Source of the DNA: Candidatus Aenigmatarchaeota archaeon
GTDB taxonomy: Archaea > Aenigmatarchaeota > Aenigmatarchaeia > CG10238-14 > SpSt-28
DNA length: 64,000 bases
Reading direction: 5' to 3'
Assembly (NCBI GenBank): GCA_039000725.1
Contig: JAWBNO010000001.1
Span: 23,616 to 87,615 of the forward strand
The notes below the pieces were generated by a model. It saw only the letters and a program-made list of their open reading frames with translations, made no database searches and was not told the DNA's origin. A program made the position numbers and the translations under genes. Positions 24,001-45,399 of the stretch are shown piece after piece. Every line of letters begins with the position of its first letter. The stretch's first letter is position 1.

Positions 24001-24346
24001 CTAAATTTTTTCCTTCAGATAAATTCAAAGAAATTTCAAAATTTCCTTCTTCATTAGTATTTAAAGTTGAAACAAGAACATCATTAAGAAAAACTTTAAT
24101 TTCTCTATTTGATAAAGCTGTACCGTTATCTAGAATCAATTTTCCTGAAATAATGTTTTCAAAATTATTAATTAAAATTTCTGAAGAAGCATAAACGTCT
24201 ATGAAATCTGTTTTCTCTTTTTCTAACTTAACTCCAACAAACCTTCCAGTTATATTTTGAATATTGAAAACTAAAATTCCTAAAATTCCAATTAAAGCCA
24301 AAATAAGTGCTGAAAAAACTTCAGCCTGCCCTATTTTCTTAGCCAT
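1..24346 (-). CDS. Giant secreted/surface repeat protein. The N-terminal >8,115 codons are in the window; the C-terminus and stop lie beyond the left edge.
   Basis: The minus-strand frame is open from ATG (24344-24346) to position 2 with no stop. It is absent from the ORF track because it is not closed in-window, and no other minus-strand ORF is listed for 1-24338. The N-terminus MAKKIGQAEVFSALILALIGILGILVF has a basic head plus a hydrophobic helix. Fifteen GGWGE-type motifs all sit in this frame, with offsets that are multiples of 3. The last in-window codons read ...KGNYTFKCNITD. Confidence 0.85.
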   Translation of the reverse strand, partial: MAKKIGQAEVFSALILALIGILGILVFNIQNITGRFVGVKLEKEKTDFIDVYASSEILINNFENIISGKLILDNGTALSNREIKVFLNDVLVSTLNTNEEGNFEISLNLSEGKNLVKVVFEGDEDSFIFGSEKEIEIYKEETFRKELKLFTDKDFYKYGEKIKIYGELIYGEKITDSLIISINLEDKVVYSIQVEVKDGKFETILDANFSESGNYKIKAVYKDLVEEKSIYFEYVKLTLNVFYDRLNTTTIRVFGNLTYGNYLIPGNVTLLVKNFQGKTVFSSSQNFSDNFEFYVNLLLPLNYSLDLIVFSEYGVVNKTIELKGREFLFKPKIVKEKFNYNLGEKAKFEINFEKRVDRKNVKVYLIDPEGSEKEVEFYEKDGKYFVDLDFGRSFRPGLYKLKVKTIEEKFVEKGREPFKFSEKVVEVLEEEETEFGVGLVAINTPKSIYLPGEEVEIIIGVLNELGKRVYDANITLIINSPLGKNYTYSTLNDTVKNNGDGTYVVYHNITNEIGKYTIYSYISGKNSSFCYETFFEVRDSSSFFVKRSSVTIADMLTEPTMEIEILSMVNATNVTIVEYLPLNFSNIKTNGIVSKNPEYISIMWNFTSVSEGELIKLRYSFTTPYISPRIYSIGPLTIESNNYSFNESKYWTLAVADVRYFFMVWEIYEKNTPNIVSPEAICRGKNYTIKVAIIELASDDATSAQNAFIRIKKPTDATFNNLPYYGWSVLSAQPYQVEGFSGGASGFTCDPGIADRCGNATFDITTSPTAEIGWYTLRIFLSATYAQVKYDTDKLDVQLISCDGVDIFDSFEIFSPTGEKKFNMQGNLISNKVIGGHVATAILPLKNYGTSSLSNINVTLEIYDGSNKVNWFMIEGNTQTISSLNPGVNTTLRWHILVPDNVDASKTYTAKVNISYSGGSKQYQKNFEVYNYGGNKPSPLVIFHTSPEHSTADTTNAYNNRTVWICNYGDYNITANITEYTTVENVGSASTTITTSDGVDCTKGTGNFQCLQRNITVSDCFWYNVRYLPIGDTGVEEYLTEVIWNDPETGSPITLTDIYQSPAVGTNTDPFTVTLNITSLPYGTNNIGVQLQIGNTGDGTSYIYTIEMYTPPGIIPFNFDVEPDDGYPRGSVYSGYEVKWTGFKSTAGKTGTNNRYWSVSSQSRVLINFSINTSYIPEFTPGGKAFLIYLNAYQQRSRWGHPTARPVVVLRGPWIKTIKYYNTTPTNEQQDFPSFFACGNFSTKLQVFNKGNLPAYNFRINETKSDILKTHPGDLIFYDFNPSNPYLEQSKLISWDGGINFITTGKDNARNFTYSIFVPYQTNGTFSFQSLALNNTFSFFDEEYIISISCGASLSVDQIRTRIGEYPEPTIYVNDIFNISANIYNDGPGNASNVIVWINYTNSTPMRGLENLRIYNSSGIESNWIYLGNILPKETKVAFNDYYFTIDTTGLSPGIITFCINANATENSTVVSSCRDITINAPPALIELENPIAISKETGSSSGSWSFNFTFNISVRVSNSENDVQICSWFSKTGTEPFKLIGCDVYQAPGSNIGIWKNYSFEFDPDCSDIGNPVFIKFNATNFAGTVNSTLLPFAITKSRIIFEEILGNSTESRRGKLPTVLSVRVKDLNGTYISNLPLRFYVTLDGIVYDIGSLVQTNSSGYANYNFLALCSPKYLVGYQKWKAELRNDDCYFDNSTENYFELRVLVTGDIIPNIVRPDGTSNYTQEDTITFLAYVIDDCGDPLTLNTTFFANHSLASFECSDVIQVGSNAYTCDWHTEITTPMGWYNVSMFAWKEFHYSNWSVNFGIPGLFYLLPIYKLENPQSYPLQEGWGYKNWNFTVLASSGNSEESFDVNIYLGNLWPPALPCYECVNFTPVSCFNCYRQVVTFLRNFSSNEVGTWYYRFSLGPTSTTEVKYVIVEKDDVSLEYVSGNNSVVIRNTQSALLSVRVFDLDANTYELNPPALVTFKIYDDRYPNGYKVLGSVYTNESGYANYLLNITDCYGWLEGSQYWGAEITDDNHYYKKASIGNYSITIQLPGCQPQIDIYSIELPRETFQYKNFTIVTYVTSWVGDANDVYINISIPNGWFVDKNVIYLGEVKTGEFKRVSWNIYPTSSGVYRISFYVNSSNAGSKETFSREFIVYNFLQTEDNSLPKILQPEEALILKFDCEAGDYRVANLTLNISSQGSKIIIETFNSSNWITVKDNLNVEGNENYFIPILLNQISSNSDGKCLVRISNFGDNFVNIEKVTFTAYYNKTAKVEGIKLIIKDVEVESLDKSEDYLNVSVRIGNSLDEGKMFNLTLKLVKDGNEIYSSEREGYVGANSYAYINFTNIKVSNLEEGEYRIIAILSYENISKIIYRDFVLGGLKLDVDYSKYQCNSTTEKIKVKIYQPLEDEIEYNVSLRVPNGWSYSPSFVQIYSKGKGYYEVEFNLTAFSDYEEEYSVFVVLNYSYAKGKNLEKEIKIRVSPNIPILEVIREIPSIVSSSIVFKPRIVVHNKGCGIANNVTLVEKISAGWIGANPSIEKNEYANDEEVMDKDVDLIYAETDLINNILTWKLSEIKPNKYAVLSYQVKAPPGLATEGTMSYNVSWNEIYYLEDKYNAKVYTYRYPQESHLQFDLFVTQDPNYPWPEVRSIRANVPYNLTLKVTNIGDINTNSEWTIKLYIPDECYLTNIENGYWNSSERKIVWQIGNLNVYQSQLFNFTIVCSNEKQFILVAEGLRDTRSKITNETNLLLNCSSTSKPAYCILTQVLNLEKPSNARYESLDNLVFTLSNEFLGKNITIGNSYLKVFDDLNREYIVWQDFSFDEKFGTYTLHFPIKEDFRNYFIESLRKIELSSYVDSTEDPFANISIDKIEFTWNLGNLFNESQNIFIKSKFYDYTPLLRNAKLYINGNENNTGGWGEKFEFGVEVRDRYGRDVTIRAYHRKVGDIWRLIGEQTCYSCYDWHQFNFSYDYDYTDISNWEFKFEGINTDGSKELYGYVFTVEKDDLALTPIQPSWNETVLRAFGYNFTIYAFDIDNQTIPFVLEDNKAYIALSQFGNNQTYKIYSIAPSINESGYIILKASNQEFCNPLNNFNLGQNYWFGGVQASLYYKDANTRIAPFNALPYVLIGSLYNTIIYPLNVNFSFELDTITLRGRVVDDCGNIRADEDMYVYFNLTNGNYNYQCIATRVGNEFQCTFNPRALNSPLGWYNITMYSSKPLHTDGLFEEKYAFFLSTVPDIVNVSIQPFGGPWGLSPFNFSAIVIDEDGNFVNITHYLRKIPDQYFVAYLDNCTNCNYYLTSFLRDFICDYDTVEVGDWRYRIEAKDESGFLNSSSEISFVIEKEPIEINISEGHSLINRTNVPNSMPLNLSVFIRDTILNRNVTEIPQVSIKFEGPNSFVYEMNVDVYNEKYYYEFYPGCGYQAGEYKWYSYVSGDECYANARSDNYTIKIYGTLYTSIISPSEYQYVTEGQNVVLRASVIDDCIVTITDANVYFILRNERTGDEFRCPENGFANYDGTSYICSFNTIGKPGGNYSVIAYSSKNYYWNSSVIKENVFFLITPVRILNVTMVYEQDGGWGEIHNFTAFIDHYNDVIVCLLEKPIDSQQYQISECKNLENPSGGKYITFSKRYTCSDFVRSQFWNYKINATEFGVPSSYSESQEYSHLLQKNDLQLTIVYNDTEAKRYDEEKAILAVYAYDLDQKQPAYVPLYSSPNIKYQVYNGTSFVYISSNSTNSSGYSIISFKPDCSYMVGPKEWYSYTEADACYKNVISNRENITIVGRLNPLLVFPIEQQYNRYAQLYVNLSAIVRDECNSVYFDNANVIFKARSVAFGTEYLCENVVYDNGYYNCSLNATEIEEGWYDVNVTASGIVYYDSYYYIQPNSFKIIHTLVPPVLRGEEAIPEQDGGWGERWYFRVNVSDLNGDDVNIYLWISRDGNNWELVNSTVCYNCGSERTIELSYKGFTCEDRIRSPIYFKFNASDVYNTTDRSPNMLYLNKNDAVLEYYSGNESYIIREIGDFLRVRVYDADAKYYSNANVSLFVTTDGNNFVYIDSNISEDSIVSLFFNPDCRFYRGLQYWKAEIIEDECYKPVSSETFTTYIVGHLQSFITYPSGQKFLRGSNITLNISVKDECNVRVEGATLNITMISNLNPNYKYNCTEIIDFGDGNYSCTFNSTDMLPRFYNVSYSISRIYYISNNFSYSNIFWIETNPILFNLRATPNILGWGETLTVKVNFTDEDLDTLYVNFYLIKGNSYKFSSVVVSGINVEATTTFTFSPGDIGDWTVIANVSDDFGKYELNTSITVEKDDVSIILVSGNNSVANRAGQYATFTLLAWDTDRNTNVMAGLQTAFWVTNKTNDLGSYKQIGTSYTSSDGTFSINFAPDCSFEVGVQRWKGGLLTNQLYKEANSTDYFVNVVSEFDGTITQPSGNILLRGTDSLLIRGYLTDIAGCGLVKGATVLFGIEGTDINCLATDEGNGYYSCIIDSSTLSLLPYGWYNVTMNASREFYVNNVSVVKENAFYLADNPKLSNPQVSPGYASWGTKFVLNVTLYDFDYDTKTVYLWLSKDGTNWFLGGTQIYVGPTPYEGVNIGFEIPTSCANISLYYFKFNATDTSGYSTEIPGSTFTVDKRPTAVIPVYGNNARVNREYQIIPLTVKVLDALNGSEVSNVNVGFFLYNKYGSEIFYENRTNSSGIVYFEFDPDCTFNPGSTSWIAGVYNDACYVSVNSTYSILVAGQLKTEIIEPYKDSKFPTGELIKLNISVYSDCLEEGRIDNADLNVKIVDPYDTIYECSPISQFNGFYNCTFNSSFKKPGYYDVLVNSTKEYYDYNYTEYIDWFKILNAPPTYSNIQVNPTQSYWTDRYVFSVDISDSDFDKVNCSLEIKEKIGDIWNHINSTIIEGSGTCSFTIDSFSCDDIGEREFRFVLDDGANEPVITEIGRFNLTKSLINITLVSGNGTSIIRQTGYGTFSVRVYDLIKNKNIGYSNNLPETNVIFKVTKDGNNYIILTPDGIGTYNGLASTVLVPDCSYLASLQKWQAYVENDACYYDNSSEEFYYNVIGKLEPRVISPTNGIKYLKGSNVSIYTNVSDDCGNLVDADTFNITLRSVSTSTNYVCEHERIDIGNYNCTFETSDKPAGYYSIILNATKLYHLSSTYTENNAFWIETLPSVINLGTNRPLDRGGWGEPWSFRANVTDEDKDPVYVYAWYRVKGTEEWQLLGTGQKSQGTISSIVSITPSPSFDCSKLLGLPEVEYEFFFNVSDDDSNTAESNIRNFTLEKDDITVSIVQGDGIIYNRSSPLKVSLGVSVFDRDRNSAVNQPYNASLYVTYNGYSYVFDQIRTSSSGTITFSFPNASKCLYQVGPQLWRVNIDSLCYKSAASPIGSINITTIPLNVTLTYPVNKVFDLGQDVPVIININDDCGFVPQASVDLVIKNQDGQEYVCNNLIDYLNGTYSCTFSNLALGYYTVLVNASKQNYPEGETYVAENAFLVASYPSISNVRAYSSRRNDIYGGWGDLWIFEVQLYDSDQEKFDFERLNISLYVNLTGSYELVNSTVCFSPECKDLTTITLTTTFDCNAIGNRNYKIVLRDYFNNTAEDFGFINIQPNEVSLYVREYPASIVREGENSGRFIVSVYDEDRRIYASDVNTTFKFTKDGSNFNFVVYGLSDSYGNVSYDLNPDCSFNAGYQYFKAETSDYCYSFSETLNYEFDIIGSLRNYIIDPKNGSEIIIEYGKSINISTLIEDECENEVGGALVELKAIWPNNYQENIPFVNSLNGIYNFSWDLSYKIGGSYSFLLSSSKEHYNSNSTLFSNWLTLVNYPPIVENISVTPETGGWGEVFTFKADVLDLQRDTVVCKLYIFTGKGEWLFKGSKIIPNGVGTCEINVTDFDCGDINITSLTKFKFEIDDGTNIFNTTEVLAPSIERNDVTLILITGNNSFVNRTYGSTLFSMRIRDLDRNIYPANVNVSVFATKDENSYSFLGIISSNSTGYLNYNFAPDCSFSAGIQKWKFEVNDSCYKRVSSEDYITTIYGWLQNTITEPLNGKRYLRGSNVTILGYVNDECNNFVSVDVINIKAKSNQTLQEFVCEPVIEDSLGNYNCTFNTSYPIVMPARFYNISMYTEKQYYNPSILTVYNAFFIETKPEIYYVTSYPSGDGGWGETWRFVVNFTDEDLDTNTITLNLQRYFGWIQQSVLSSGINVSVMFNYSSFTGQDIGEKEFYITIQDARSYTDNSSVYKIYIDKDDVELIHVFGNNSVYNRSSRPFVNFRVAVLDTDRNVYVGPNRQGIFYYTKDRVNFVNTSYIYTDSQSNLTLSSVRVDCSFEVGPQRWIAGILNDGFYKNKNSTTFEFTVITNNLTINLTKPKIGESFLRGIDNITLEVTISDDCGFVSGANVILYIPRNGFTCNAVDMNNGTYYCTIRNTQHLNWDLGWYDIIVRASKQYYNSSEVLVENLFFLASAPSFATMPIIQSQQGGSIGGWGEKWSFGIYVRDDDLNLVNVSLYVKEGDSWKLLNSTIIEGQPNPQLVEFVGHTFSCEDIGIRDLMFVATDEFNYSSNVTSTFTIERNDVYIEYQIPYSFTINREGAESAPLTIKVYDADREYVPIIADIGYNVTSDGNEFIFVGSNQSDIEGLSIYNFDADCRFRVGEQRWRAFTKDNACYKDQYYEIPGAKVNIVGQLKQSLNYPIENQFVDVGDVVEFNVSIPTDCSEDGLQNQTVLTIKIDGPSGTEYCSPIIDLGNGYYTCYWNTSFHKGGYYNFTITGSKINYNPNTTFYPNWVYLINTPPSYNNVSFSPSIAGWGSTFNFSVDVDDKQYDNVTCKLFVYTGRNEWIYKGESIVYNGKGRCLVTVNNFDCLDINTTSEVKFKFELYDGTNRINTTEYSGPSIVKDDVIVEYYIGNQSIVNRTGNNYAPLVVRIKDAIRNTYVGSNVYGRVFVTKDGINYDEGTFNLTDSNGFLRIYFDPSSDYEAGVQKWKGGVYGDSCYFDANSTEYYVTVIGSLYSNLLLPVGYTEYLKPEENITLLTKVFDDRGVEISDSSVEMILISEYGNIYNCQPVIPRGSGEYECTINTSLIKARYYNVSINASKPYHNFGHSLIENVIFVKTKPILEGERVISKDGTTLGGWGETWKFRVNVTDEDLDGVTLKVFIKYENEDSWILANSSSFYEDPNLQGPLNTTITIFYKDPSTFQTRQGNWSYYIEAEDTRGYIVRTLTNNFTIEKDDISIELISGNNVFVWRNGTDIAYLGVRVIDTDREDYANDARVYFFVTLDGNNFDSGTLVYANGTGYAIFEFNPGCEPLYKTGIQKWFASIIDDPYYKNISTQNYSLTIRSFLGIRIDYPNGEAFLRGTQVPFYATLFDDCETVSGADVLMYSVWGGNQFSCTPVFDMNNGTYNCSFDTSGKPFGWHSIRVLGRKVYYSDYPSYNSTIKSNAYFIASAPTINSFTVDKIFGGWGEAYTFTVRITDTDASPNNVTIWKSFDGGNSWHYVNSKVVSPTYSNYPVTFTERFSCEDYLLNSTVLYKATTVDSTGFSAESSALNITFERNDVSVTLGADSSTVVRRIGDNVATFKVTVYDSDRGIYPDGANVTVWITRDRNNFDFILNCTTSNGSCSVYYNPDCYSLEGIQYWFASSGDLCYKPINSTTRNFTVIGQLNVSIIRPLNGEVLMRGVINSLNASVYDECLRYQPTAVAQWYNSTWRLISTGQNTTWLIPTTYKLGMETIYVNVSLSNFDPNFNSSSIFIYGWSSVRFINPANNTVVWAGDLVNLECNVTDYNTTTPIPNYLVKFYRDDEEIGTAFTNENGIATYAWNTFGESGGLHKIDCRIEENSTLYYRPTINSSTIYINIRRPLIIERIISPSFVYRNDTFIPNKANISVRVRDSFIGYAVNANVSFYNDTSYLGSCLTNSTGWCTIENIDFDDSIIPQSVTIYINATSNINEPSETNTTVIVVKGILFVEIEKPENNSYWPKSQPIPVKARVWSENGENETLINPTVEWWNETSILITGLDTFIPQIRVAEQITGRHSLMAIAKKAYYDDGSNNVTIYINSLSDVIWIYPLNNSVLPYPEEFDVVCLVKDVYAGGIPDYNVSLYYKLEPSNVFIKLAELTTNNSGFVSYKFKPEDKGNYTFKCNITD
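1150..15700 (-). repeat. In-frame tandem array of ~15 diverged tri-domain modules (~945-999 nt, ~324 aa each) inside the giant ORF
   Basis: The GGWGE-type motif (reverse complement ttcaccccaacc-like) occurs at 2039, 3026, 4001, 4961, 5924, 6890, 7856, 8843, 9815, 10769, 11714, 12662, 13655, 14633 and 15632. Spacings are 987, 975, 960, 963, 966, 966, 987, 972, 954, 945, 948, 993, 978 and 999 nt. Each module has three parts: a GGWGE...D-x-D domain; an (E/D)(K/R)(D/N)D-V...GNNS...V-x-V-x-D-x-DR...PDCSF...CYK domain; and an LRGSN-x-T...DDCGN...G-x-Y-x-C-T-F-N-T-S...GWYN domain. Array boundaries are approximate. Confidence 0.8.
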
Positions 24347-24782
24347 AGATAACTCTCACCTTAATTTCTTTTTTTCCAGGAAGCGTAGAGATAGAAGTTT
24401 TTACCTTAAAAACTACTTCACAAGTTTCATTTATACCAATATTTTCACATATTTCTTGATCTTTATCTGAATCCATACCTTCTGGTAAAACAAGATAAAT
24501 TTTAAGACTCTCTAATACCTTATTTCCGCTGTTTTTGACTTTAACAATATAATCAAAACTTTCTCCTCTTTTAAGTTTGCTTTTTTCTAAAACAGTAAAA
24601 ATTTGGAAATCTGAGAACTCTAAACTTTCGTTTTCTGCTGATATATTTAAATCTTCATATATTGAAGCTTCTTCAGTCAAATTTTCTTCTTCATAAGTTA
24701 CATTCTCTTGTGCTATAGCTAAAAAAAGAAAAAAGGCTAGAAAAATTACTATAATAGCCAAACTCTTTTTATTTATTATCAT
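24339..24782 (-). CDS. Small secreted beta-sandwich (CARDB/NEW3-like) protein, translationally coupled to the giant ORF
   Basis: 147-aa ORF with a Sec-type signal (MIINKKSLAIIVIFLAFFLFLAIA|QEN). The pattern GESFDYIVKVKNSGNKVLESLKIYLVLPEG resembles CARDB-type domains. An SD-like GAGGT lies upstream. Its stop (24339-24341) overlaps the giant ORF's ATG (24344-24346) within tATGGCTAA. Confidence 0.6.
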   Translation of the reverse strand: MIINKKSLAIIVIFLAFFLFLAIAQENVTYEEENLTEEASIYEDLNISAENESLEFSDFQIFTVLEKSKLKRGESFDYIVKVKNSGNKVLESLKIYLVLPEGMDSDKDQEICENIGINETCEVVFKVKTSISTLPGKKEIKVRVIYG

Positions 24783-26665: not shown

Positions 26666-28084
26666 ATGGAAGAGAAAGAAATTAAGCCAGAAAGATTGCC
26701 TTCAAAAGAAAACTTTATAGAATGGTATAATGCTTTGCTTCAACTTGCAGAAATAGCAGATAGAAGATATCCTGTAAAAGGAACTTTTGTTTGGCTTCCA
26801 TACGGATTTAAAATAATGAAAAAATTGGTTGAAATTTGGAATAGAATTTTTGAAGAATATGGAATAGAAGAAGTTTACTTTCCGCTTTTCGTTCCTTTGG
26901 AATTTGCTAAAATAAATGAGGAATGGTTTGAAGGTTTTAAGGATGAAGCTTTTTACGTCAAAGATGAAGATTTAATCTTAAGACCTACTGGAGAGCCTGC
27001 CATGTATCCAATTTTTAAATATTGGATTATGGATGGTAAATTGCCTATTAGAATTGTTGAAACTGTTTCTTCTTTTAGAAAAGAAGGAAAAACAACTCAT
27101 ACAATGATAAGAGATAGAGAAATTACTTTTTGGCATGAAATTCATACAGTTCATAAAACCAAAGAAGAAGCTTATGAAGAAATGGAAAAACACAAAAGAA
27201 TTTATGAATATATATGGAAAGATATTCTAAACATTCCTCCAATTTGGGTAGAAAAGCCAAAATATGAAATATTTCCTGGAGCAGAAAGTGCTTATGAATT
27301 TTATACAATTTTACCAAATGGAAGATTGTTAGAAAATGGAAGTGTAAATAATTTGGGTCAAGCATATGCCAAAAAATTTGATTTATTTTATATCAATGAA
27401 AAAGGTGAAAAAGAGTATGTCTGGCAAGTTTGTACTGGTAATGGGGCTAGATTTTTAGTTGCTGTTATATCTTTACATGGAGATGAAAGAGGTTTAATTT
27501 TACCACCAAAAATATCTCCATATGATGTAGTTATAATAAATATACCAAAAGATAAAGAAAAATTTGAGAAAGAAGCTTTAGAATTAAAGAAAACATTAGA
27601 AAATTTCGGATTTAAAGTTTTTGCTGACCTTAGTGAAAAAACTCCTGGAGAAAAGTTTAATATTTGGGATATAAAGGGAGTACCAATTAGAATTGAAATT
27701 GGGGAAAAAGAAGTTAAAGAAAATTATTATACTGTTTACAGAAGAGATAAGAAAGAAAAAATTAAAGTTGAAAAAGAAAAAATAGTTCAAAAAATTAAGG
27801 AATTGCTAGAATTTGAAATACCCAAATATCTTTATGAAAAAATTAGCAAGTATTATTCAGAAGTTATAAAGTATTTTGATGATTTAGAAGAAGCTAAAAA
27901 ATGGATTAAAGAAGGTAAAGTTGCTAAGGTAAATTGGTGTGGAGATGAAAGATGTTTTAATGAAATAACTCTTATTGAAGCTTCTGTTGAGCCAATTGGA
28001 TTTTTACCTGAAGAAAAAGAAGGAAAATGCATAATTTGTGGAAAAGAAACTAAAAAATTAACTTTAATTGGAAAAACTTACTGA
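26666..28084 (+). CDS. proS: Prolyl-tRNA synthetase (archaeal type)
   Basis: Diagnostic segments are FIEWYNALLQLAEIADRRYPVKGTFVWLPYGFKIMK and ILRPTGEPAMYPIF, plus a class II core and a C-terminal Cys pair (CIICGK). The track ORF starts at TTG 26612; the ATG at 26666 (MEEKEIKPERL) gives a typical ~472-aa length. Confidence 0.85.
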   Translation: MEEKEIKPERLPSKENFIEWYNALLQLAEIADRRYPVKGTFVWLPYGFKIMKKLVEIWNRIFEEYGIEEVYFPLFVPLEFAKINEEWFEGFKDEAFYVKDEDLILRPTGEPAMYPIFKYWIMDGKLPIRIVETVSSFRKEGKTTHTMIRDREITFWHEIHTVHKTKEEAYEEMEKHKRIYEYIWKDILNIPPIWVEKPKYEIFPGAESAYEFYTILPNGRLLENGSVNNLGQAYAKKFDLFYINEKGEKEYVWQVCTGNGARFLVAVISLHGDERGLILPPKISPYDVVIINIPKDKEKFEKEALELKKTLENFGFKVFADLSEKTPGEKFNIWDIKGVPIRIEIGEKEVKENYYTVYRRDKKEKIKVEKEKIVQKIKELLEFEIPKYLYEKISKYYSEVIKYFDDLEEAKKWIKEGKVAKVNWCGDERCFNEITLIEASVEPIGFLPEEKEGKCIICGKETKKLTLIGKTY

Positions 28085-29404
28085 TAAAAATTTAGAAATT
28101 GCTTTAATTGCTCTTTCTGGAGATTCATAAACTGGAATTTTGTTCTCAATCATTCTTTCATAAATTGTTTTAGCTTTTTTTCCAGAAATGACAACAACTT
28201 TTGGTTTTTTAAAACTTAATATAGCTTCCACTATACTTTCATCTATTGATGGCACTTGAACTAAAACTATTATTAAATAAATATCAAATTCTTTGTATTT
28301 TTCCATAATTTTAAAAACATTTCTATATCTTTCAGAATCGGCATCAGCTATAATATCTATTGGATTTTTTAAACTAGCATAACTTGGTAAAACTTTTCTC
28401 AATTCTTCTTTCAATTTTTCACTAGGCTCTTTAAGTTTTATTCCATTTTTTTCAGCTTCATCTGAAGCTAAAACCCCAAAACCGCCAGCATTAGTAATTA
28501 TTGCTAAATTCTTACCAGAAACTTTTTCCAAATTTGAAAAAATTTTAACTAGATCTATAAGTTCTTCCCAAGTATTTGCCTCTATAACTCCAAACTGCTT
28601 CATTATATTTGAAAAAACTTTGTAATCTCCTGCCATGGAAGAAGTATGGGAAGCTACTGCTCTAGCACCAGTTTCTGTTTTTCCGCCTTTGAGTAAAATT
28701 ATTGGCTTCTTACATTTTTTAATAACTTCCAAAAATCTTTTTCCATCTTTTATTCCTTCTATAAATCCAGCTATAACTTTTGTTTTTTCATCTTTAGAAA
28801 AATACTCAATTAAATCACACTCATTAATATCACATCCATTTCCATAAGAAACTACTTTACTAACCCCAATTCCATTTTTTGAAAAGTTTTCCATAGCTAA
28901 AACAGCTATTGTTCCAGATTGGGAAAAGAAAGAAACATTTCCCTCCTTAGGTTTTTCTACATCAGAATCTAAGAAAAATGTAGCATCTAGATTAACTTCA
29001 GGATTATAAATTCCTATTGTGTTTGGGCCAACTATTCTAATTTTATTTTCTTTCGCAATTTCAACTAGTTCTTTCTCCAATTTTTTTCCTTCTTCTCCAC
29101 TTTCAGAAAAGCCAGCAGAAATTATAACAACATTCTTTATTCCTTTTTTTCCACATTCTTTTAAAATTGAAGGAACTATAGAAGCTTTAACAGCAACTAT
29201 AGCTAAATCTATTTCATAATCAATATTAAGAACGGAAGGAAAAGATTTTAAACCTAATATTTCTTTTGCGTTTGGATTTACTGGATAAACTTTTCCTTTA
29301 AATTTTTCTTTTAAATTTTTCAACAAAACAAAACCAATTTTTCTTTCTTCTCTACTTGCACCTATAACAGCAACAGATTTTGGATAAAAAACCTTTTCCA
29401 TCAT
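28064..29404 (-). CDS. acdA: Acetyl-CoA synthetase (ADP-forming), alpha subunit (CoA-binding/ligase-CoA domains)
   Basis: Motifs are VAVIGASREERKIG (CoA-binding) and VASHTSSMAG (phospho-His loop). The track start is 29419. The ATG at 29402-29404 is preceded by GGAGGT and overlaps the upstream stop (ATGA), so it is the preferred start. Confidence 0.75.
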   Translation of the reverse strand: MMEKVFYPKSVAVIGASREERKIGFVLLKNLKEKFKGKVYPVNPNAKEILGLKSFPSVLNIDYEIDLAIVAVKASIVPSILKECGKKGIKNVVIISAGFSESGEEGKKLEKELVEIAKENKIRIVGPNTIGIYNPEVNLDATFFLDSDVEKPKEGNVSFFSQSGTIAVLAMENFSKNGIGVSKVVSYGNGCDINECDLIEYFSKDEKTKVIAGFIEGIKDGKRFLEVIKKCKKPIILLKGGKTETGARAVASHTSSMAGDYKVFSNIMKQFGVIEANTWEELIDLVKIFSNLEKVSGKNLAIITNAGGFGVLASDEAEKNGIKLKEPSEKLKEELRKVLPSYASLKNPIDIIADADSERYRNVFKIMEKYKEFDIYLIIVLVQVPSIDESIVEAILSFKKPKVVVISGKKAKTIYERMIENKIPVYESPERAIKAISKFLSVSFSN

Positions 29405-30030
29405 CTTATAAACCTCCAATCTACTACATAAACCCCTTTCTCATTTATTATAACTGGATTAAAATCAAATTCTTTTATGTTTTCCTTTAAAAACATATTC
29501 CCAGATCTTAAAATTAGTTCAAACAAAGATTTTAAATTAAATTTTTTTCCTCTAAAACCTTTAAGTATTTCATAAACTTTAATTTCCTTGACCATTTCTT
29601 CTACATCTTTTAAATAAATTGGTAAAACCCTAATTGAAATATCTTTGTAAATTTCAGTAAAAATACCGCCTGCCCCAAAAACTATAACCTTTCCAAAAAC
29701 ATTATCAGTTTTTCCACCAACGAAAATTTCCAAGCCATTTATTTGTTTTTGTAAAACAAAACTTTCAATTCTAGAATTTTTGTTATACGAAAAAACGTTG
29801 CAAAGTAAATCTTTATAGGCTTTTTCAAGCTCCTTTTTGTTTCTAATATCTAAAATTACACTTTTAGCTTCAGTTTTATGAACTATATCTGGAGAATAAA
29901 CTTTCAATACAGCTTTATCGAAATTTTTAATTCTATTTTTCAAATATTCAATTTCTAAAGAAAAATAGCTTTCAACTATAGGAATTCTATATTTTTTTAT
30001 AATTTTTAAACTTTCTTTCAAACTTAACAT
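29401..30030 (-). CDS. acdB: Acetyl-CoA synthetase (ADP-forming), beta subunit (ATP-grasp)
   Basis: 209-aa ATP-grasp-like ORF (VFGAGGIFTEIYKDISIRVLP) immediately upstream of, and overlapping, the alpha-subunit gene. Confidence 0.65.
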   Translation of the reverse strand: MLSLKESLKIIKKYRIPIVESYFSLEIEYLKNRIKNFDKAVLKVYSPDIVHKTEAKSVILDIRNKKELEKAYKDLLCNVFSYNKNSRIESFVLQKQINGLEIFVGGKTDNVFGKVIVFGAGGIFTEIYKDISIRVLPIYLKDVEEMVKEIKVYEILKGFRGKKFNLKSLFELILRSGNMFLKENIKEFDFNPVIINEKGVYVVDWRFIR

Positions 30031-37664: not shown

Positions 37665-37690
37665 TAGTTTTCAAAAATATATATTTAAGT

Positions 37691-39578: not shown

Positions 39579-39899
39579 TTAACCTATGAGCTTTATTTCA
39601 ACATGAATATCTTGTGGTATACCAATTCTTAAAATTTGCTTTAAAGTTCTTTCATCAGCCTGTACATCAACTAATCTTTTATGTATTCTCATCTCAAATT
39701 TATCGTAAGTAGCATTTCCATGACCAGTACCATCACCACAAGGTGTTTTTAAAGTAGTTATTCTTAGTTTTTTGGTTGGCAAGGGAATTGGTCCCCTATA
39801 GCTTACACCAAACCTTTTTGCCACTTCAATAATTTCTCTAGCTATTTCATCTAACTTCTTTGGGTCCCTTCCAACTAGCTTTATTCTAGCAACCTGCAT
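39579..39899 (-). CDS. rps10: 30S ribosomal protein S10 (uS10)
   Basis: 106 aa, reading MQVARIKLVG...YRGPIPLPTKKLRITTLKTPCGDGT...FEMRIHKRLVDV. Confidence 0.9.
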   Translation of the reverse strand: MQVARIKLVGRDPKKLDEIAREIIEVAKRFGVSYRGPIPLPTKKLRITTLKTPCGDGTGHGNATYDKFEMRIHKRLVDVQADERTLKQILRIGIPQDIHVEIKLIG

Positions 39900-39953
39900 T
39901 TTCCTCTACCTATCAAATAATTCTATAATTGATTTTAAAAACTTAAAAATATT

Positions 39954-40718
39954 TTAAGAAAATTTTTCCTTCATATATTCAATATCTAATTTTTCAGAGA
40001 AAAACGCCCTTATAAATTCCTCACTTGGTATAGAGTTATTTTTAATTATTAGAACTCTATCACAATACCAAATTTTTGGATTCCCTGAAAACCAAATATT
40101 ATCATTATCGATAGCTTCTTGAGTTTCATTGAATATAACTTTTTTAATAATATTTATCTCACATATTCCATCAGATTGGATAAAGTATGAATATAAGTTT
40201 TGTAATATTGGCAAATCTCCAATTAAGGTTAAATCATTATTAAAATATATTTGTGGTATTCCTGCAAACTTAAAATCTTTTCTTATATTGTTAATATACC
40301 AATCCATTGTTTTAGCTCCATCTTTGCTTTTATAAACTTCATACTCTATTACTATTAACTCATTGTTAGGAATAAATCTATAGAAAAGATATGGATCTAC
40401 CTTAGCACAGTGTGGACATCCTATTCCAGTAAAGTATATTGCACAAGATTTTGGCTTTTTACAACTCGAATTTAATTCTATATTAGTATCACAATATATT
40501 GGATTGTACAAAATTTTTCCATAAGTAGTATCTAAATAGTTCTTGAAACATATCTTTCCGTCATATTCACAAATTCCTAAATCTTTCCTACAAGAAAATT
40601 GAATATAGTTAGTAACAATATCCTTATTTTCATTATATGGTAAAAATTCTATAACAAAAAATACCAACAAAAAAATTATAAAGACCAAAATTATGAATAA
40701 AAAATTTTTATTTTTCAT
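39954..40718 (-). CDS. Membrane-anchored extracytoplasmic thioredoxin-fold protein with a CPHC (DsbA-type) active site
   Basis: N-terminal TM anchor, a Cys-rich segment, then YFTGIGCPHCAKVDP. The SD GAGGTGA lies 5 nt upstream of the ATG. Confidence 0.55.
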   Translation of the reverse strand: MKNKNFLFIILVFIIFLLVFFVIEFLPYNENKDIVTNYIQFSCRKDLGICEYDGKICFKNYLDTTYGKILYNPIYCDTNIELNSSCKKPKSCAIYFTGIGCPHCAKVDPYLFYRFIPNNELIVIEYEVYKSKDGAKTMDWYINNIRKDFKFAGIPQIYFNNDLTLIGDLPILQNLYSYFIQSDGICEINIIKKVIFNETQEAIDNDNIWFSGNPKIWYCDRVLIIKNNSIPSEEFIRAFFSEKLDIEYMKEKFS

Positions 40719-40722
40719 CTAC

Positions 40723-41571
40723 TCACCTCATGTATAACCAAATAAATAAAGCTAAAAATATCATTGCAATTCCACCTATAATTCTCATTTTATTTCTATG
40801 TTTTCTATAGATTTTTTCATAAATATTTTTAGGTTCCGATCCTTTCATTAAAAGTAAAACTATTAAAATTTCTGGTAAAATAAAAATAGTGTTGTAATAT
40901 CCTAGTATTAAAATTATTTCATACAATTTAGCTTTCAAAGAGTGTAAGAAACTTATAACTCCAACATAAAATAGACCTGTGCAAGGAAACTCTACTAATG
41001 TTACAATAATTGCTAAAAATACTGTTGCTGTTACTGTTGTAAATTTTAATAATCTATCTATTGTTGGTTTAAACCTTTTTGGTATTGAAAAAATAGATTC
41101 CTTAGATAAAATTCCGTCTCTGATATTTATTATCCCTGCTATAACTAATAATAAAACCAAGAAAATTTTGATAAAATTAAATAGATTGCTTGCAATTGCT
41201 GCTAAATAAATTAAAGATAGGCCAAAATACATAAGAAGACCTAAAATAAAATATGTAAAAAATATAGTAAGAGTAAATATGGTTGCTCTAATTATTATTT
41301 CTTTTCTCTCTATTTTCATAGATGCTAAAGTTGCTATCATTATCACTAATAAAGAAATTATACATGGATTTATCGAATCGGCTAAAGAAAAGAATGTTAA
41401 AACAAATATGAATTTAAAAAATGAAAATTGAGTATCTATTTTCAACTCTTCTATTTTAACAATTTTAAGATTTGTTAAAAAAATGAATAGAAAAATTAAC
41501 AAAATTATAAGTAAAATAAAAATGCTCTTTAGTTCTATTTTTATTTTGTTTTTTAATTTCAGCCCTATCAC
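40723..41571 (-). CDS. Polytopic membrane protein, CcdA/DsbD-like, with one Cys in each of two TM segments
   Basis: Multi-TM ORF with ADSINPCIISLL and VEFPCTGLFYV, resembling the paired TM cysteine motifs of the CcdA/DsbD_2 family. GTG start. It overlaps the upstream gene by 4 nt and ends 4 nt before the downstream gene. Confidence 0.45.
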   Translation of the reverse strand: MIGLKLKNKIKIELKSIFILLIILLIFLFIFLTNLKIVKIEELKIDTQFSFFKFIFVLTFFSLADSINPCIISLLVIMIATLASMKIERKEIIIRATIFTLTIFFTYFILGLLMYFGLSLIYLAAIASNLFNFIKIFLVLLLVIAGIINIRDGILSKESIFSIPKRFKPTIDRLLKFTTVTATVFLAIIVTLVEFPCTGLFYVGVISFLHSLKAKLYEIILILGYYNTIFILPEILIVLLLMKGSEPKNIYEKIYRKHRNKMRIIGGIAMIFLALFIWLYMR

Positions 41572-42290
41572 CTCAAATGCTTAATAATTAATTCAGATAT
41601 ATCTAAAACTTTTATTTTTTTAAATTGCGAAAGAGCAGCTACACACATAGGACATGAACTAACCAAAATTTTTGCCTTAATATCCAATGCTTGCTTTATT
41701 CTATCTTTGGCTATTTCTTTTGAAAGCTGCGGATAATTAGCTCTTAAGCCTCCACCACCTCCACAACAAAGAGATCTATCTTTATTTTCTTCCATTTCGA
41801 TAAGTTTGTAACCTAAATATTCAATTAATTTTCTTGGCTCTTCATATATTCCTAAATACCTTCCCAAATAGCATGGATCATGATAAGTAACTATGCCCTT
41901 ACCATTTCTTATTAAATTTAATCTTTTGCTTTCAACAGCATTCCAAATTGTTTGAACTAAATGCTCACACTCTATACTCCAATCTGCAAACAATTTAGGA
42001 TACTCTTTTTTGAATACAAAACAACAAGCTGGACAATTAAATAAGATTTTTCCGACATTGTATCTTTTCAAAATTTCATAATTTTTTCTGGCTAACATTT
42101 TGAATTGTTGAATATATCCAGCATTTTTTACAGGAGAACCACAGCAAACTAATTCATCAATCTCTATAAATCTAATACCTATTTTTTTCATAATTTTCTC
42201 ATAATTTTCTTTCAAATTATTATAAACAAATTTAGTTAAACAGCCAGGATAATATAAAGTGTTTTTACCCAACAATTTTTCTAAAAACAT
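41568..42290 (-). CDS. CCG-domain Fe-S oxidoreductase (LutA/HdrB/GlpC-like)
   Basis: Two cysteine-rich CCG-type motifs: VCCGSP...CPACC and SLCCGGGGG...CPMC. The preferred start is the ATG at 42290 with AGGTGA upstream; the track lists a TTG at 42305. Confidence 0.65.
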   Translation of the reverse strand: MFLEKLLGKNTLYYPGCLTKFVYNNLKENYEKIMKKIGIRFIEIDELVCCGSPVKNAGYIQQFKMLARKNYEILKRYNVGKILFNCPACCFVFKKEYPKLFADWSIECEHLVQTIWNAVESKRLNLIRNGKGIVTYHDPCYLGRYLGIYEEPRKLIEYLGYKLIEMEENKDRSLCCGGGGGLRANYPQLSKEIAKDRIKQALDIKAKILVSSCPMCVAALSQFKKIKVLDISELIIKHLR

Positions 42291-42298
42291 ATAATCAC

Positions 42299-43573
42299 CT
42301 AGCAACAGTATAATTTTTCTGGTAATATTTTTTTATCACCACTACTTCCAAAAGGATTTCCAAAAGCTTCTATATTTTCAATCATTTCCATGTTCGATTT
42401 TGTTTCAAGTCTATTTTTAACTGAAATTTCTCTCAATCTTACTATTAAATTTGGTACATCTATTGAAAGAGGACATACATCTTTACAAGAAGAGCATGTT
42501 GTACAAAAATATAGGCCTGAATTATAAGCTTGCCCTATTCCCTCTAAAACAAAAGTTTTACTTATTCCAATTCCACCAAAGTAATTTTTTCCATAATAAT
42601 CAAAAATTTGTCTATAAACTGGGCAAGAATATAAACATGCCCCGCAATTAATACAATACAATACTTCTTTTAAGTCTGTTTTAGAAATCTTAAGCCTATT
42701 ATTATCAACTAAAATTAAATAAACCTCTTTTGCACCATGCATTCCGTATACTATTTTTTTTTCTATATCTGCAGTTTTACTAGGAGATGAAATTACGTTT
42801 ATATAAGAAACTGCAGATGTTCCAGTTCCGTATATTGCTAAAATTTTTGAAAAAAACATAGCTTCTTCTAGATTGTTTAATATTTTATCTACTGTAGAAA
42901 CTATTACATGATATTTTGGAATTCTTGATAATAAAGAGATATTGCCCTCATTTTCAACTATTACCACACTACCGTCTGAAGTTATAAAATTAGCTCCAGT
43001 TAAACCATATTTAGAAGCTAATATTTTACTTCTTAGATATTTACTAACAAACTTAACTATATCTTCAGGTCTTTTTCTCAAATTTATTCCAAACTTTTTT
43101 CTTATAACATTAACTATTTTATCTATAGATAAATGCAAAGCTGGAGTTACAGGATGTGTAGCCTTTTCTCCACAAATTTGTAATATAAAATCCCCACAAT
43201 CTGTTTCTATAATTTTATTTCTTTTTGAAAATGCTTCCTCAAATCCTATCTCCTTAATAACATTAGATTTACTTTTAACAATAACCTCTCCTTCTGGAAT
43301 TATTTTCTTTAGAATTTTTATTGCGTCTTTTGAATTTTTAGCAAAAAACGTTTTTATTCCATTTTTTTCCAAATTTTCTAAGGTAATATCAACTAAATTA
43401 TCCAAATTTTCAATACATTTTTCTTTTATTTTTCTAGCTCTCTCTTTTAGTTCTTTCAAATTTATATTTTTGAGAGCCTCACTTCTATTTAAATAATATC
43501 TTCTATAAGCAATTTTAAAAGCTTTTTTTGAATCAGCAATCCTTTTTTCTTTAATTATTTTCTCAATTTCCAT
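42299..43573 (-). CDS. LUD-domain plus 2x[4Fe-4S] ferredoxin-domain protein (LutB-like)
   Basis: Cys clusters CINCGACLYSCPV and CTTCSSCKDVCPL follow a ~300-aa LUD/DUF162-like N-terminal region. Confidence 0.6.
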   Translation of the reverse strand: MEIEKIIKEKRIADSKKAFKIAYRRYYLNRSEALKNINLKELKERARKIKEKCIENLDNLVDITLENLEKNGIKTFFAKNSKDAIKILKKIIPEGEVIVKSKSNVIKEIGFEEAFSKRNKIIETDCGDFILQICGEKATHPVTPALHLSIDKIVNVIRKKFGINLRKRPEDIVKFVSKYLRSKILASKYGLTGANFITSDGSVVIVENEGNISLLSRIPKYHVIVSTVDKILNNLEEAMFFSKILAIYGTGTSAVSYINVISSPSKTADIEKKIVYGMHGAKEVYLILVDNNRLKISKTDLKEVLYCINCGACLYSCPVYRQIFDYYGKNYFGGIGISKTFVLEGIGQAYNSGLYFCTTCSSCKDVCPLSIDVPNLIVRLREISVKNRLETKSNMEMIENIEAFGNPFGSSGDKKILPEKLYCC

Positions 43574-43584
43574 AAAAGAAGTTG

Positions 43585-43630
43585 GTTGAAACCTTATTTA
43601 AACTTTGGTTACATTTTTTGAAACCTTATT
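43585..43630. promoter_or_regulatory. Two perfect 14-bp direct repeats TTGAAACCTTATTT, 32 bp apart, in a divergent promoter region
   Basis: The copies are at 43585-43598 and 43617-43630, between the LutB-like gene (minus strand) and the membrane wHTH regulator gene (plus strand). Confidence 0.45.
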
Positions 43631-43650
43631 TTTATAAAAAAAATTAATTT

Positions 43651-44103
43651 ATGGAAAGAAAAATAGTCGTAATATCTATAATAATAAGTCTTTTTGTATT
43701 TTCCGTATCTTTAGCTACATTATATGCTCAAATAAGAATTATAGAAGCTAATGCCTATACTTGCCTATTTGCAGTTCCCGCATTAATTCCTCTATTTTCT
43801 TCTTTCGGTGTTTTAATAGGTTTACTAGTTTATTATATATTAGCGCCAAAAATTGAAGGAATGGCAAAAAAGAAAATTTTTACAATTTTAGATCTTTTAG
43901 AACCAAAAGAAAGAGATGTTATAAAAATGATTATTGAAAATAATGGCGAAATTTCACAAGCGAAAATATCTTCTGTTCTAGGAAAGGTTGAAAGTCATAG
44001 AATTATTCAAAAATTAATTTTAAGGGGAATTTTAGAAAAAATCAAAGAAGGAAAAACGAATAAAATCAAATTAAAAGAAAAATTTAAAGATATTATAAAA
44101 TGA
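43651..44103 (+). CDS. Membrane-anchored (2 TM) winged-helix transcriptional regulator
   Basis: Two N-terminal hydrophobic helices are followed by LEPKERDVIKMIIENNGEISQAKISSVLGKVESHRIIQKLILRGILEK (wHTH). Confidence 0.5.
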   Translation: MERKIVVISIIISLFVFSVSLATLYAQIRIIEANAYTCLFAVPALIPLFSSFGVLIGLLVYYILAPKIEGMAKKKIFTILDLLEPKERDVIKMIIENNGEISQAKISSVLGKVESHRIIQKLILRGILEKIKEGKTNKIKLKEKFKDIIK

Positions 44104-44127
44104 AAAGAAAAGTAGTTGATATTATTA

Positions 44128-45399
<1,272 letters not shown>

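Follow-up and report, generated by a model that had tools for sequence, protein, structure and literature searches.

A candidate transmembrane thiol-disulfide relay fed by an Fe-S 2-hydroxyacid dehydrogenase, encoded in an Aenigmatarchaeote genome

We analyzed a 64,000-nucleotide stretch of contig JAWBNO010000001.1 from Candidatus Aenigmatarchaeota archaeon (the window throughout; low-GC archaeal DNA, about 25-34% GC), which carries a cassette of four packed genes encoding a LutB-like Fe-S protein, an HdrB/LutA-like protein with CCG domains, a CcdA-like membrane protein and an anchored protein of the thioredoxin (Trx) fold with a CPHC active site, together with a divergent DUF7343 regulator gene. 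We give slightly better than an even chance to the proposal that these five genes make up one transmembrane thiol-disulfide relay fed by an Fe-S 2-hydroxyacid dehydrogenase and not by thioredoxin. Coupling of the Fe-S pair to the CcdA-like/CPHC pair, taken as such, is quite probable; given that coupling, we infer with moderate preference that electrons flow from the inside to the outside of the cell. A relay of this kind had been suggested by an earlier sequence-only reading, and the interpretation is supported: the family of the membrane protein, the location of the CPHC protein and the co-occurrence of the genes all came out in its favor on testing.

Organization of the cassette

All four cassette open reading frames (ORFs) lie on the minus strand, between the genes for EF-1alpha (45399..44128) and ribosomal protein S10 (39899..39579). 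The features are as follows, with wHTH denoting a winged helix-turn-helix.

43573..42299, minus strand: LutB-like Fe-S protein, 424 aa; LUD domain plus two [4Fe-4S] motifs
42290 (ATG, likely) or 42305 (TTG)..41568, minus strand: CCG protein; PF02754
41571..40723, minus strand: CcdA/DsbD-superfamily membrane protein, 282 aa; PF11139
40718..39954, minus strand: CPHC protein, 254 aa; no Pfam family
43574..43650: divergent promoter region, 77 nt; two exact TTGAAACCTTATTT copies
43651..44103, plus strand (divergent): DUF7343 membrane-tethered wHTH regulator; PF24034

The tight same-strand packing and the spacings first noticed were reproduced. The LutB-like and CCG genes are separated by 8 nt with the ATG start and overlap by 7 nt with the TTG start, the CCG and membrane genes overlap by 4 nt, and a 4-nt gap separates the membrane and CPHC genes. 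GGTGA stands in front of the ATG at 42290, which is likely the true start of the CCG gene in preference to the TTG at 42305. Negative results for other genes in the window cover the ORFs scanned with Pfam, a subset of those in the window. Among the scanned ORFs there was no second LUD-domain (LutC-like) gene and no thioredoxin or thioredoxin-reductase gene, and neither they nor the cassette proteins matched the DsbB or VKOR families; a LutC-like gene was likewise not found among the called genes of related loci L001-L008. The earlier statements that the cassette has no DsbB or VKOR homolog and that LutC is absent thus hold within this scope.

The cassette and regulator (39579-45399 in the window; 4066-9978 in L001) interrupt an otherwise conserved S12-S7-EF2-EF1a-S10 cluster, between EF-1alpha and S10. 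This insertion is common to two Aenigmatarchaeota lineages whose proteins are only ~57% identical.

Conservation of the linkage

A 99% identical locus, L009, belongs to the Candidatus Aenigmatarchaeota metagenome-assembled genome (MAG) DRTY-8_201705_bins_23. The closest homologue beyond it, P0004 (57% identical), comes from another Aenigmatarchaeote that has the same four genes, the divergent regulator and the EF-1alpha/S10 site (L001, L010), and P0005 (48% identical) comes from "Nanobdellati" MAGs (L002-4, L011-12) with the same four genes next to different flanks, namely an Mrp antiporter, an S-layer gene and AdoMet synthetase. At 32-36% identity (L005, L006, L008, L013, L076) the order is [Trx-]CcdA-like, CCG, FAD_binding_4/FAD-oxidase_C/Fer4; a GlcD-type dehydrogenase has been swapped in for the LUD module. 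In bacteria of the Candidate Phyla Radiation (CPR), a Trx-CcdA fusion is followed by CCG and LUD genes (L038, L060). The proposed co-occurrence of the four genes therefore extends to three further archaeal lineages, and a wider association, with shuffled order and exchanged dehydrogenase, to DPANN archaea and CPR. At least four gene orders were seen, where MEM is the CcdA-like gene: LUD-CCG-MEM-TRX, LUD-TRX-MEM-CCG, [TRX-MEM]-CCG-LUD and [TRX-MEM]-CCG-FADox-Fer4. The arrangement is more than chance, recurring in other genomes with different flanks and orders.

A reciprocal metagenome scan was started from the Fe-S subunit, using the pattern N[IVT][RE]x[FY]GNPFG taken from an alignment of its ferredoxin domain and C-terminal tail (A5). 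A CCG gene was present at 59/80 of the loci found and a CcdA-like gene at 44/80, many of the loci without one or the other being short contigs. When only the 23 loci flanked by 3 kb or more on each side are counted, the CCG gene was always present (23/23) and the CcdA-like gene was found at 16.

In a neighbor-joining tree of 124 CcdA-like proteins, whose two locus sets came from different queries, the CCG-linked state can be explained by 3 parsimony changes; when the labels were shuffled 200 times, the mean was 34 and the lowest value 23. Linked loci recovered with the membrane protein share clades with those recovered with the tail. Stand-alone CcdA-like proteins keep the Pro of a PCTGGPY motif in transmembrane (TM) helix 4, whereas every linked clade is without it (PCTGLFY, PCSGMMY, PCAGAFP, PCTVGIP, PCTGG[FVIM]Y). 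The Trx partners at linked loci are all of the CxHC type (30 CPHC, 6 CSHC, 1 CTHC and 1 CQHC); often a signal peptide and the Trx domain precede the CcdA-like core in one fused protein. We argue for a functional unit because the linkage survives domain-level divergence, changes of gene order and the exchange of the catalytic module.

Further genes were recorded at these loci. After the LutB-like gene, L038 (10256-11164) and L060 (6708-7670) carry an extra membrane-anchored protein with two thioredoxin-like halves, whose motifs are CPEC/CKEC in L038 and CGDQC/CAEC in L060, and both have a ZIP-family metal transporter gene ahead of the Trx-CcdA fusion. L145, too, has a ZIP gene in its vicinity, along with a thioredoxin-reductase-like gene. 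At L006 (4865-7236), two tandem Trx-CcdA-like fusion genes stand upstream of the CCG and FAD oxidase genes; one has the canonical "PC..GPY" motif and the other the CCG-linked "PCSGMMY".

The Fe-S pair and its terminal Cys-Cys

The LutB-like protein contains a LUD domain (PF02589, E=5.9e-41, aa 64-289) and a Fer4_8 domain (E=3e-12, aa 303-371), followed by a C-terminal tail. Its eight Fe-S cysteines, at 307/310/313/317 and 357/360/363/367, bear out the two 4Fe-4S motifs first assigned to it along with the LUD domain. Against the LutB model TIGR00273 it scores 280.7 bits, under the cut-off of 444.8, and it is 30% identical to E. coli YkgF (E=8e-67) in an alignment that spans aa 16-399 only. No TM segment or signal sequence was found in it. 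The tail is located as follows:

42302..42394, minus strand: C-terminal tail NMEMIENIEAFGNPFGSSGDKKILPEKLYCC-COOH of the LutB-like protein, ending in vicinal Cys-Cys

All linked Fe-S subunits end in N-x2-M-x7-GNPFG-x(6-14)-[LMW][YFHT]-C-C-COOH, independently of the catalytic domain (LUD or FAD oxidase) and of the host (archaeal or bacterial). The N, M, G and P of the tail and the terminal CC are invariant across 10 aligned modules of both LUD and FAD-oxidase types. The CC had been left out of the metagenome pattern, and it was present at 80/80 of the loci which that pattern found. GNPFG is found, too, in LutB-like proteins that have no CC, and fused LdhH/HdrD-like proteins have it in the linker between Fer4 and CCG; the linked systems are thus "split" GlcF/LdhH-type proteins whose ferredoxin half has a free C-terminus bearing a vicinal Cys pair. 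In an exhaustive search of cluster representatives, the terminal CC was confined to ~19 of the best 150 and was absent from canonical-length or fused LutB/LdhH-like representatives. It is absent, too, from E. coli YkgF, whose C-terminal end is quite different. As far as we can determine, the terminal Cys-Cys signature is new. C-terminal redox arms are known elsewhere, in high-Mr thioredoxin reductase (SCCS/GCUG), in MerA (Cys558-Cys559) and in DsrC, whose arm serves DsrK, and by analogy we propose that the Cys-Cys tail may be a mobile, redox-active swinging arm.

The CCG protein matches PF02754 in two stretches (E=2.2e-32), and both cysteine motifs are complete (C22-x31-C54C55-x35-C91xxC94 and C145-x34-C180C181-x36-C218xxC221), in agreement with the LutA/HdrB-like gene with two CCG domains that had been described. 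The ten motif cysteines are invariant in 62 related CCG proteins, and two non-motif cysteines of the window protein vary. Its best NCBIfam matches are the C-terminal half of LdhH (1e-42) and then TfrB (2.4e-39), both under cut-off, and it is 23% identical to E. coli YkgE (E=3e-22). By its motifs, two CX31-39CCX35-36CXXC with 10 cysteines, the protein belongs to the HdrB type; the cluster and the disulfide chemistry are putative.

The CcdA-like membrane protein

The membrane protein scores 39.7 bits against PF11139, above the cut-off of 35, and 19.2 bits against DsbD_2, under the cut-off of 24.9. It has only two cysteines, C70 in NPC (codon 41362-41364) and C197 in FPCTG (codon 40981-40983), and seven hydrophobic helices, read as an extra N-terminal TM helix and a 6-TM core. 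An AlphaFold2 (AF2) model is all-helical, with a pLDDT of 85.6. D65, N68, P69, C70, P196 and C197 are invariant in two alignments, A2 (22 sequences) and A4 (16 sequences). Read from the sequence, the K/R-rich loops 85-97, 156-178 and 243-261 fall on one, predicted cytoplasmic, side, and the membrane core is therefore oriented with its N-terminus out. The same orientation is that of TM1 of DsbD-beta, which follows the periplasmic domain. No internal repeat between the TM1-3 and TM4-6 halves was detectable by hhalign.

DPANN archaea and CPR/Patescibacteria account for most of its 76 database relatives. The sources of several call them "cytochrome c biogenesis protein CcdA", many carry a precomputed PF02683 (DsbD_TM) match, and many are fused to an N-terminal thioredoxin or glutaredoxin (Grx) domain; in our family set, PF02683 was matched by 3/16 members (best 7e-7). 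PF11139 (the GAP/Sap family) and DsbD are both assigned to the LysE superfamily (PMC4608589), so that the PF11139 label is not an assignment to an unrelated transporter. From the Pfam matches, the Cys pair and the Trx fusions, the protein is best placed in the CcdA/DsbD branch of that superfamily. The CcdA/DsbD-like identity with TM cysteines proposed at the outset survives this check, with both cysteines invariant in 22/22 and 16/16 sequences. An identity as a SfLAP/GAP lipid exporter, an unrelated transporter, was rejected on the invariant Cys pair, the Trx-fused relatives, the DsbD_TM matches and the common superfamily.

The CPHC protein

The last cassette protein has one N-terminal TM segment (aa 5-23) and the CPHC motif at aa 101-104 (40407-40418); a minimal Trx/Grx fold is flanked in it by a 6-Cys beta domain on the N-terminal side and a PKIWYC domain on the C-terminal side. 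Relatives number only 14. Across 14-15 homologues YFTGxGCPHCAxxDP does not vary, and the G-I/V-P cis-Pro loop (GIP155) hardly does. No Pfam DsbA or Thioredoxin match was found. In the AF2 model (pLDDT 79.4), aa 91-181 fold as beta-alpha-beta-alpha-beta-beta-alpha; Foldseek returned Grx/Trx structures at a probability of 0.98-1.0 (E about 0.01) and DsbA chains at 0.06-0.1. The label "DsbA-type" fits the CPHC motif and the cis-Pro loop and fails for the fold, which has no DsbA helical domain. A DsbA homologue was accordingly rejected: the helical domain is missing from the model, and the fold is a minimal Trx/Grx.

In two relatives, P0088 and P0090, a CPHC-type domain behind a signal peptide is fused to the CcdA-like domain, and the N-terminal domain of such fusions matches solved thioredoxins (1e-5 to 4e-7). 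Because these fusions place the domain between the signal peptide and the CcdA-like TM1, the CPHC domain is predicted to lie outside the cell, as the K-rich N-terminus and single signal-anchor of the cassette protein also suggest. The topology first sketched, with CPHC outside and the CCG and LUD proteins inside, is upheld; no TM segment or signal sequence was seen in the LutB-like protein.

The proposed relay and its direction

In the relay as we picture it, the LutB-like subunit would oxidize a 2-hydroxyacid, most likely lactate, a role that the GlcD-like FAD oxidase would take in the sister systems. Two [4Fe-4S] clusters would carry the electrons to the HdrB-like CCG subunit, whose motifs correspond to the sites where heterodisulfide reductases make or break S-S bonds. 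There a protein disulfide would be reduced; our proposal is that the Fe-S subunit itself provides it, as the vicinal Cys-Cys of a swinging C-terminal arm. The arm would then exchange with the buried Cys70/Cys197 pair of the CcdA-like protein, which would hand reducing equivalents to the extracytoplasmic, anchored CPHC protein, and this in turn would reduce or isomerize disulfides of surface proteins, or other external disulfides, in the manner of DsbD-DsbC. The analysis shows the domain identities, the invariant cysteines, a predicted topology and a linkage kept across lineages through exchange of modules; we infer the physical contact between the CCG and CcdA-like proteins, the role of the CC tail, lactate as the substrate and the direction of flow.

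A possible client is encoded 15.6 kb from the cassette, where a giant ORF (24355..2, minus strand) of >8118 aa, cut by the start of the window, begins with an N-terminal TM segment. It has 135 Cys (1.7%, moderately Cys-rich), spaced periodically at roughly 5+3 Cys per ~325-aa module. This ORF had been called an evident client; it is real and its cysteines are periodic, but proximity is the sole link, which makes the role plausible, not evident, and speculative at this stage. A small ORF next to it (24339-24782, minus strand) has an NPCBM_assoc/NEW3 domain.

To our knowledge, characterized CcdA/DsbD-family proteins all carry electrons outward (Bushweller 2020). Stand-alone CxHC Trx-CcdA relatives, with no CCG gene nearby, are most likely thioredoxin-fed and reductive, and hence the simplest view is that the linked clades changed their donor, not their direction. 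The lactate/pyruvate couple (~ -190 mV) lies below DsbA/DsbC-like CxxC potentials, and NAD-independent LutABC and GlcD/Dld-type enzymes are known as hydroxyacid (lactate) oxidizers. Lactate/pyruvate can thus reduce a high-potential CxHC site, which would then resemble DsbC, the isomerase kept reduced by DsbD. For CCG-containing lactate dehydrogenases, thiol/disulfide acceptors have been proposed (PMC3949148).

Several observations weigh against this proposal in whole or in part. With the membrane protein as query, CCG/dehydrogenase neighbors were found at only 8/80 of the best genome loci and 72/80 were without CCG, so that CcdA-CCG coupling is a property of a subset. At 7 of the 23 well-flanked metagenome loci, all CPR-like contigs, no CcdA-like gene accompanies the CC-tailed LutB and CCG genes over about 4-6 kb, so that the pair can occur on its own, at least in cis. 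Thioredoxin and thioredoxin-reductase-like genes adjoin the cassette at L005, and a classical donor may be present in organisms such as this one. The CcdA fold is unconfirmed by structure search: the sole match of profile A4 in the PDB was CcdA 5VKV, with both cysteines aligned and a non-significant E=4.9, a second profile (A6) gave chance matches only, and Foldseek with the membrane model found no significant PDB match (best E=0.86, MFS/ZIP noise), a result that counts neither for nor against a CcdA fold. The LUD substrate is assumed, by analogy, from LutABC genetics. Finally, the DsbA oxidase is recognized by just such an active site, CPHC with V/I ahead of the cis-Pro, and this fits the opposite direction equally well.

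Alternative explanations

That opposite direction is the alternative that survives best, and we regard it as unlikely. Here the CPHC protein would act as an oxidase, and electrons would run inward through the CcdA-like pair, the CCG/CC arm and the [4Fe-4S] clusters to a sink such as pyruvate or another 2-oxoacid, giving a quinone-independent disulfide formation that replaces DsbB/VKOR, neither of which was seen in the cassette or among the scanned ORFs. Besides the DsbA signature, the match to TfrB is in keeping with it, as TfrB is a CCG enzyme that oxidizes thiols to reduce an organic acid. Since DPANN and CPR hosts are reported to have no electron transport chains (PMC7507113), the quinone-dependent DsbB and VKOR would be unusable by them. 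Large Cys-bearing surface proteins are nevertheless encoded, such as the giant ORF and an S-layer gene beside L004. The difficulties lie in energetics and precedent: the pyruvate/lactate couple is a poor sink for a DsbA-like couple at ~ -120 mV, lactate usually stands well above pyruvate in fermenters, LutABC and GlcD-type enzymes work as oxidizers, the characterized CcdA/DsbD proteins export electrons, and stand-alone CxHC members have no such sink encoded nearby.

Less probable again is the absence of any coupling, with an ordinary NAD-independent 2-hydroxyacid dehydrogenase and an ordinary thioredoxin-fed reductive pathway brought together by co-regulation (e.g., through DUF7343, under redox stress). 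Each pair does resemble a known two-part system, given the identities to YkgF and YkgE and the relatives named CcdA; the LutB/CCG pair stands alone at the 7/23 loci, most CcdA-like genes are unaccompanied, and the L005 neighbors could supply the donor. What tells against it is that the linkage persists across Archaea and CPR Bacteria, in at least four orders and through replacement of the catalytic module, with CCG, the Fer4-CC tail, CcdA-like and CxHC-Trx remaining in company, that the linked CcdA-like proteins form separate clades with an altered TM4 motif, and that the Fe-S subunit carries a family-specific terminal Cys-Cys. LutC was not seen among the scanned ORFs, and the hosts are without the quinone pool that normal LutABC/Dld is thought to feed (PMC7507113).

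We hold it doubtful, and the least probable of the three, that the CcdA-like protein is mainly the membrane anchor or electron outlet of a respiratory-type lactate dehydrogenase, in which case the relay would serve energy metabolism and not protein folding, as a sink onto small-molecule disulfides, polysulfide or sulfur outside the cell. Oxidation of lactate requires an acceptor of more positive potential than NAD+, and such an outlet would allow conversion of lactate to pyruvate and on to acetate with ATP, for which acetyl-CoA synthetase (ADP-forming) genes are present at 28064..30030. CCG subunits normally dock on membrane partners such as HdrE and DsrM (PMC3949148), and for Pelobacter it has been suggested that electrons reach polysulfide through CcdA and a periplasmic thioredoxin (PMC3543383). 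Sulfur-metabolism genes were not seen at the loci, though; exchange via a single Cys pair would be slow for bulk catabolic flux, and the extra Cys-rich, protein-like domains of the partner Trx proteins suggest protein clients. A plain "lactate utilisation operon" was rejected on the absence of LutC among the scanned ORFs, the scores under equivalog cut-offs and the conserved membrane and Trx partners.

Relation to known systems

The proposed relay shares with the pathways from Trx through CcdA/DsbD to DsbC, CcmG/ResA and ScsB-ScsC one Pro-preceded Cys in each of two TM helices, an extracytoplasmic CxxC Trx-fold partner that is often fused, and a core N-terminus on the outside. Unlike them, its encoded cytoplasmic partner is a CCG protein with a LUD- or FAD-type Fe-S dehydrogenase ending in Cys-Cys; its membrane protein belongs to the PF11139 branch, not PF02683, with NPC in TM1 instead of PCxxP; the linked clades have no Pro after the TM4 Cys; and the partner motif is CxHC.

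LutABC/LldEFG (YkgEFG) has similar LutB-like (30% to YkgF) and 2xCCG LutA-like (23% to YkgE) subunits, Dld-II/GlcDF resembles the sister loci with a GlcD-like FAD oxidase, Fer4 and CCG, and the two halves of Desulfovibrio LdhH, which when fused is the best NCBIfam match, resemble the Fe-S pair. The cassette differs from LutABC in having no LutC (E. coli ykgG directly follows ykgF) and in scoring under all curated equivalog cut-offs, from LdhH in that its Fer4 and CCG parts are split, and from E. coli LutB in the GNPFG...YCC-COOH end of its Fer4 part. Its genes are linked to a CcdA-like protein and not, as for LutABC/Dld, to a quinone-reducing context, in hosts reported without electron transport chains.

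Two complete CX31-39CCX35-36CXXC motifs are also found in HdrDE, DsrMK/DsrC, TmcB/HmcF and TfrB, heterodisulfide-reductase-type CCG enzymes in which a peripheral Fe-S/CCG module likewise goes with an integral membrane partner. The partner here has no heme or quinone site and is a putative Cys shuttle, and the electron source would be a hydroxyacid dehydrogenase domain. Like DsrK, which acts on DsrC, the CCG site is proposed to act on two Cys carried by the C-terminal arm of a protein; here that arm would be part of the Fe-S subunit and its Cys are vicinal, whereas those of DsrC are ~11 residues apart. With DsbA-DsbB/VKOR the cassette has in common an extracytoplasmic CPHC site, V/I before the cis-Pro and an adjacent membrane protein with redox cysteines, but its Trx-fold protein is without the helical insertion of DsbA, the membrane partner is unrelated to DsbB or VKOR, and quinone is not involved; if the system were oxidative, its sink would be a cytoplasmic Fe-S enzyme.

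Full-text literature searches on CCG-CcdA, LutB-CcdA or DPANN/CPR disulfide systems found no description of this coupling. The components are members of known families; the combination, its spread over DPANN and CPR and the specialized CcdA-like clades are new as far as we can determine. The relay belongs with the transmembrane thiol-disulfide relays, and there is a real chance that it is mechanistically unprecedented.

The divergent regulator and its promoter region

The divergent gene scores 28.2 against PF24034 (DUF7343), above the cut-off of 27.6, and encodes two TM helices followed by a cytoplasmic winged helix. Just past TM1, on the predicted outer face, most homologues have a C-x-C, represented by a single Cys in the window protein. 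At least 16 loci of several lineages have a DUF7343 gene next to the cassette or divergent from it on the upstream side (L001, L005, L008, L009, L010, L013, L052, L092, L094, L097, L098, L100, L103, L111, L142 and L157), and the regulator belongs to the cassette unit. It is a reasonable idea that, through its outward Cys, it may sense the external thiol redox state. In the spacer (43574-43650), exact copies of TTGAAACCTTATTT at 43586-43599 and 43618-43631 lie over TATA-like boxes. The repeats could serve as the operator. Their copy number in the window is in no excess over chance, and the only support comes from the orthologous L001 spacer, where the block is largely conserved next to proteins only ~57% identical.

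Other features of the window

Upstream of EF-1alpha, the aEF-2 gene (45472-49137, minus strand, 1221 aa) contains an intein with a LAGLIDADG endonuclease inside the GTPase P-loop (HHGK/C...HN/T, slashes marking the splice points; Intein_splicing 1.7e-28, LAGLIDADG_3 7e-16); its L001 orthologue, of 728 aa, is intein-free. The ORF at 51999-56297 (minus strand, 1432 aa) joins Rpb2 domains 4-7 (the RpoB C-terminal half) to Rpb1 domains 1-5 (RpoA') with no intervening stop codon, an apparent in-frame RNA polymerase B'-A' fusion, and the preceding ORF, 56281-57771, holds Rpb2 domains 1-3. The stretch 59594-63980, over which the GC skew flips sign, holds a tyrosine recombinase gene (Phage_integrase, 2.6e-22) and, after it, several small ORFs that match no Pfam family; an integrated element may have its edge here.

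Two adjacent class II (D/K/N) aminoacyl-tRNA-synthetase-like genes lie at 36369-38605 (minus strand), one full-length (431 aa) with an OB anticodon-binding domain and one of 304 aa with the catalytic core only, in an AsnA/AspRS-paralogue-like arrangement. The ADP-forming acetyl-CoA synthetase subunits at 28064-30030 (minus strand; CoA_binding/Succ_CoA_lig and ATP-grasp_5) fit a fermentative, acetate-forming lifestyle.

Significance

The transmembrane thiol-disulfide pathways known to us draw on or deliver to thioredoxin (DsbD/CcdA/ScsB) or quinones (DsbB/VKOR) only. In the cassette we see signs of a third source or sink, namely an HdrB-type Fe-S disulfide reductase module that a 2-hydroxyacid dehydrogenase would drive, in a small system of 4-5 genes whose linkage is conserved across DPANN and CPR, two huge radiations reported to be without electron transport chains. 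If the proposed relay is correct, it would explain the upkeep or proofreading of Cys-bearing surface proteins in ultra-small cells and would give a physiological acceptor to "orphan" LutB/LutA-like pairs without a quinone pool or LutC, and the C-terminal Cys-Cys would stand as a redox arm of a new type. If instead the reverse direction holds, the system would represent fermentative oxidative protein folding, with the first CcdA/DsbD-family protein working in reverse, and would be the missing disulfide-forming machinery of DPANN and CPR.

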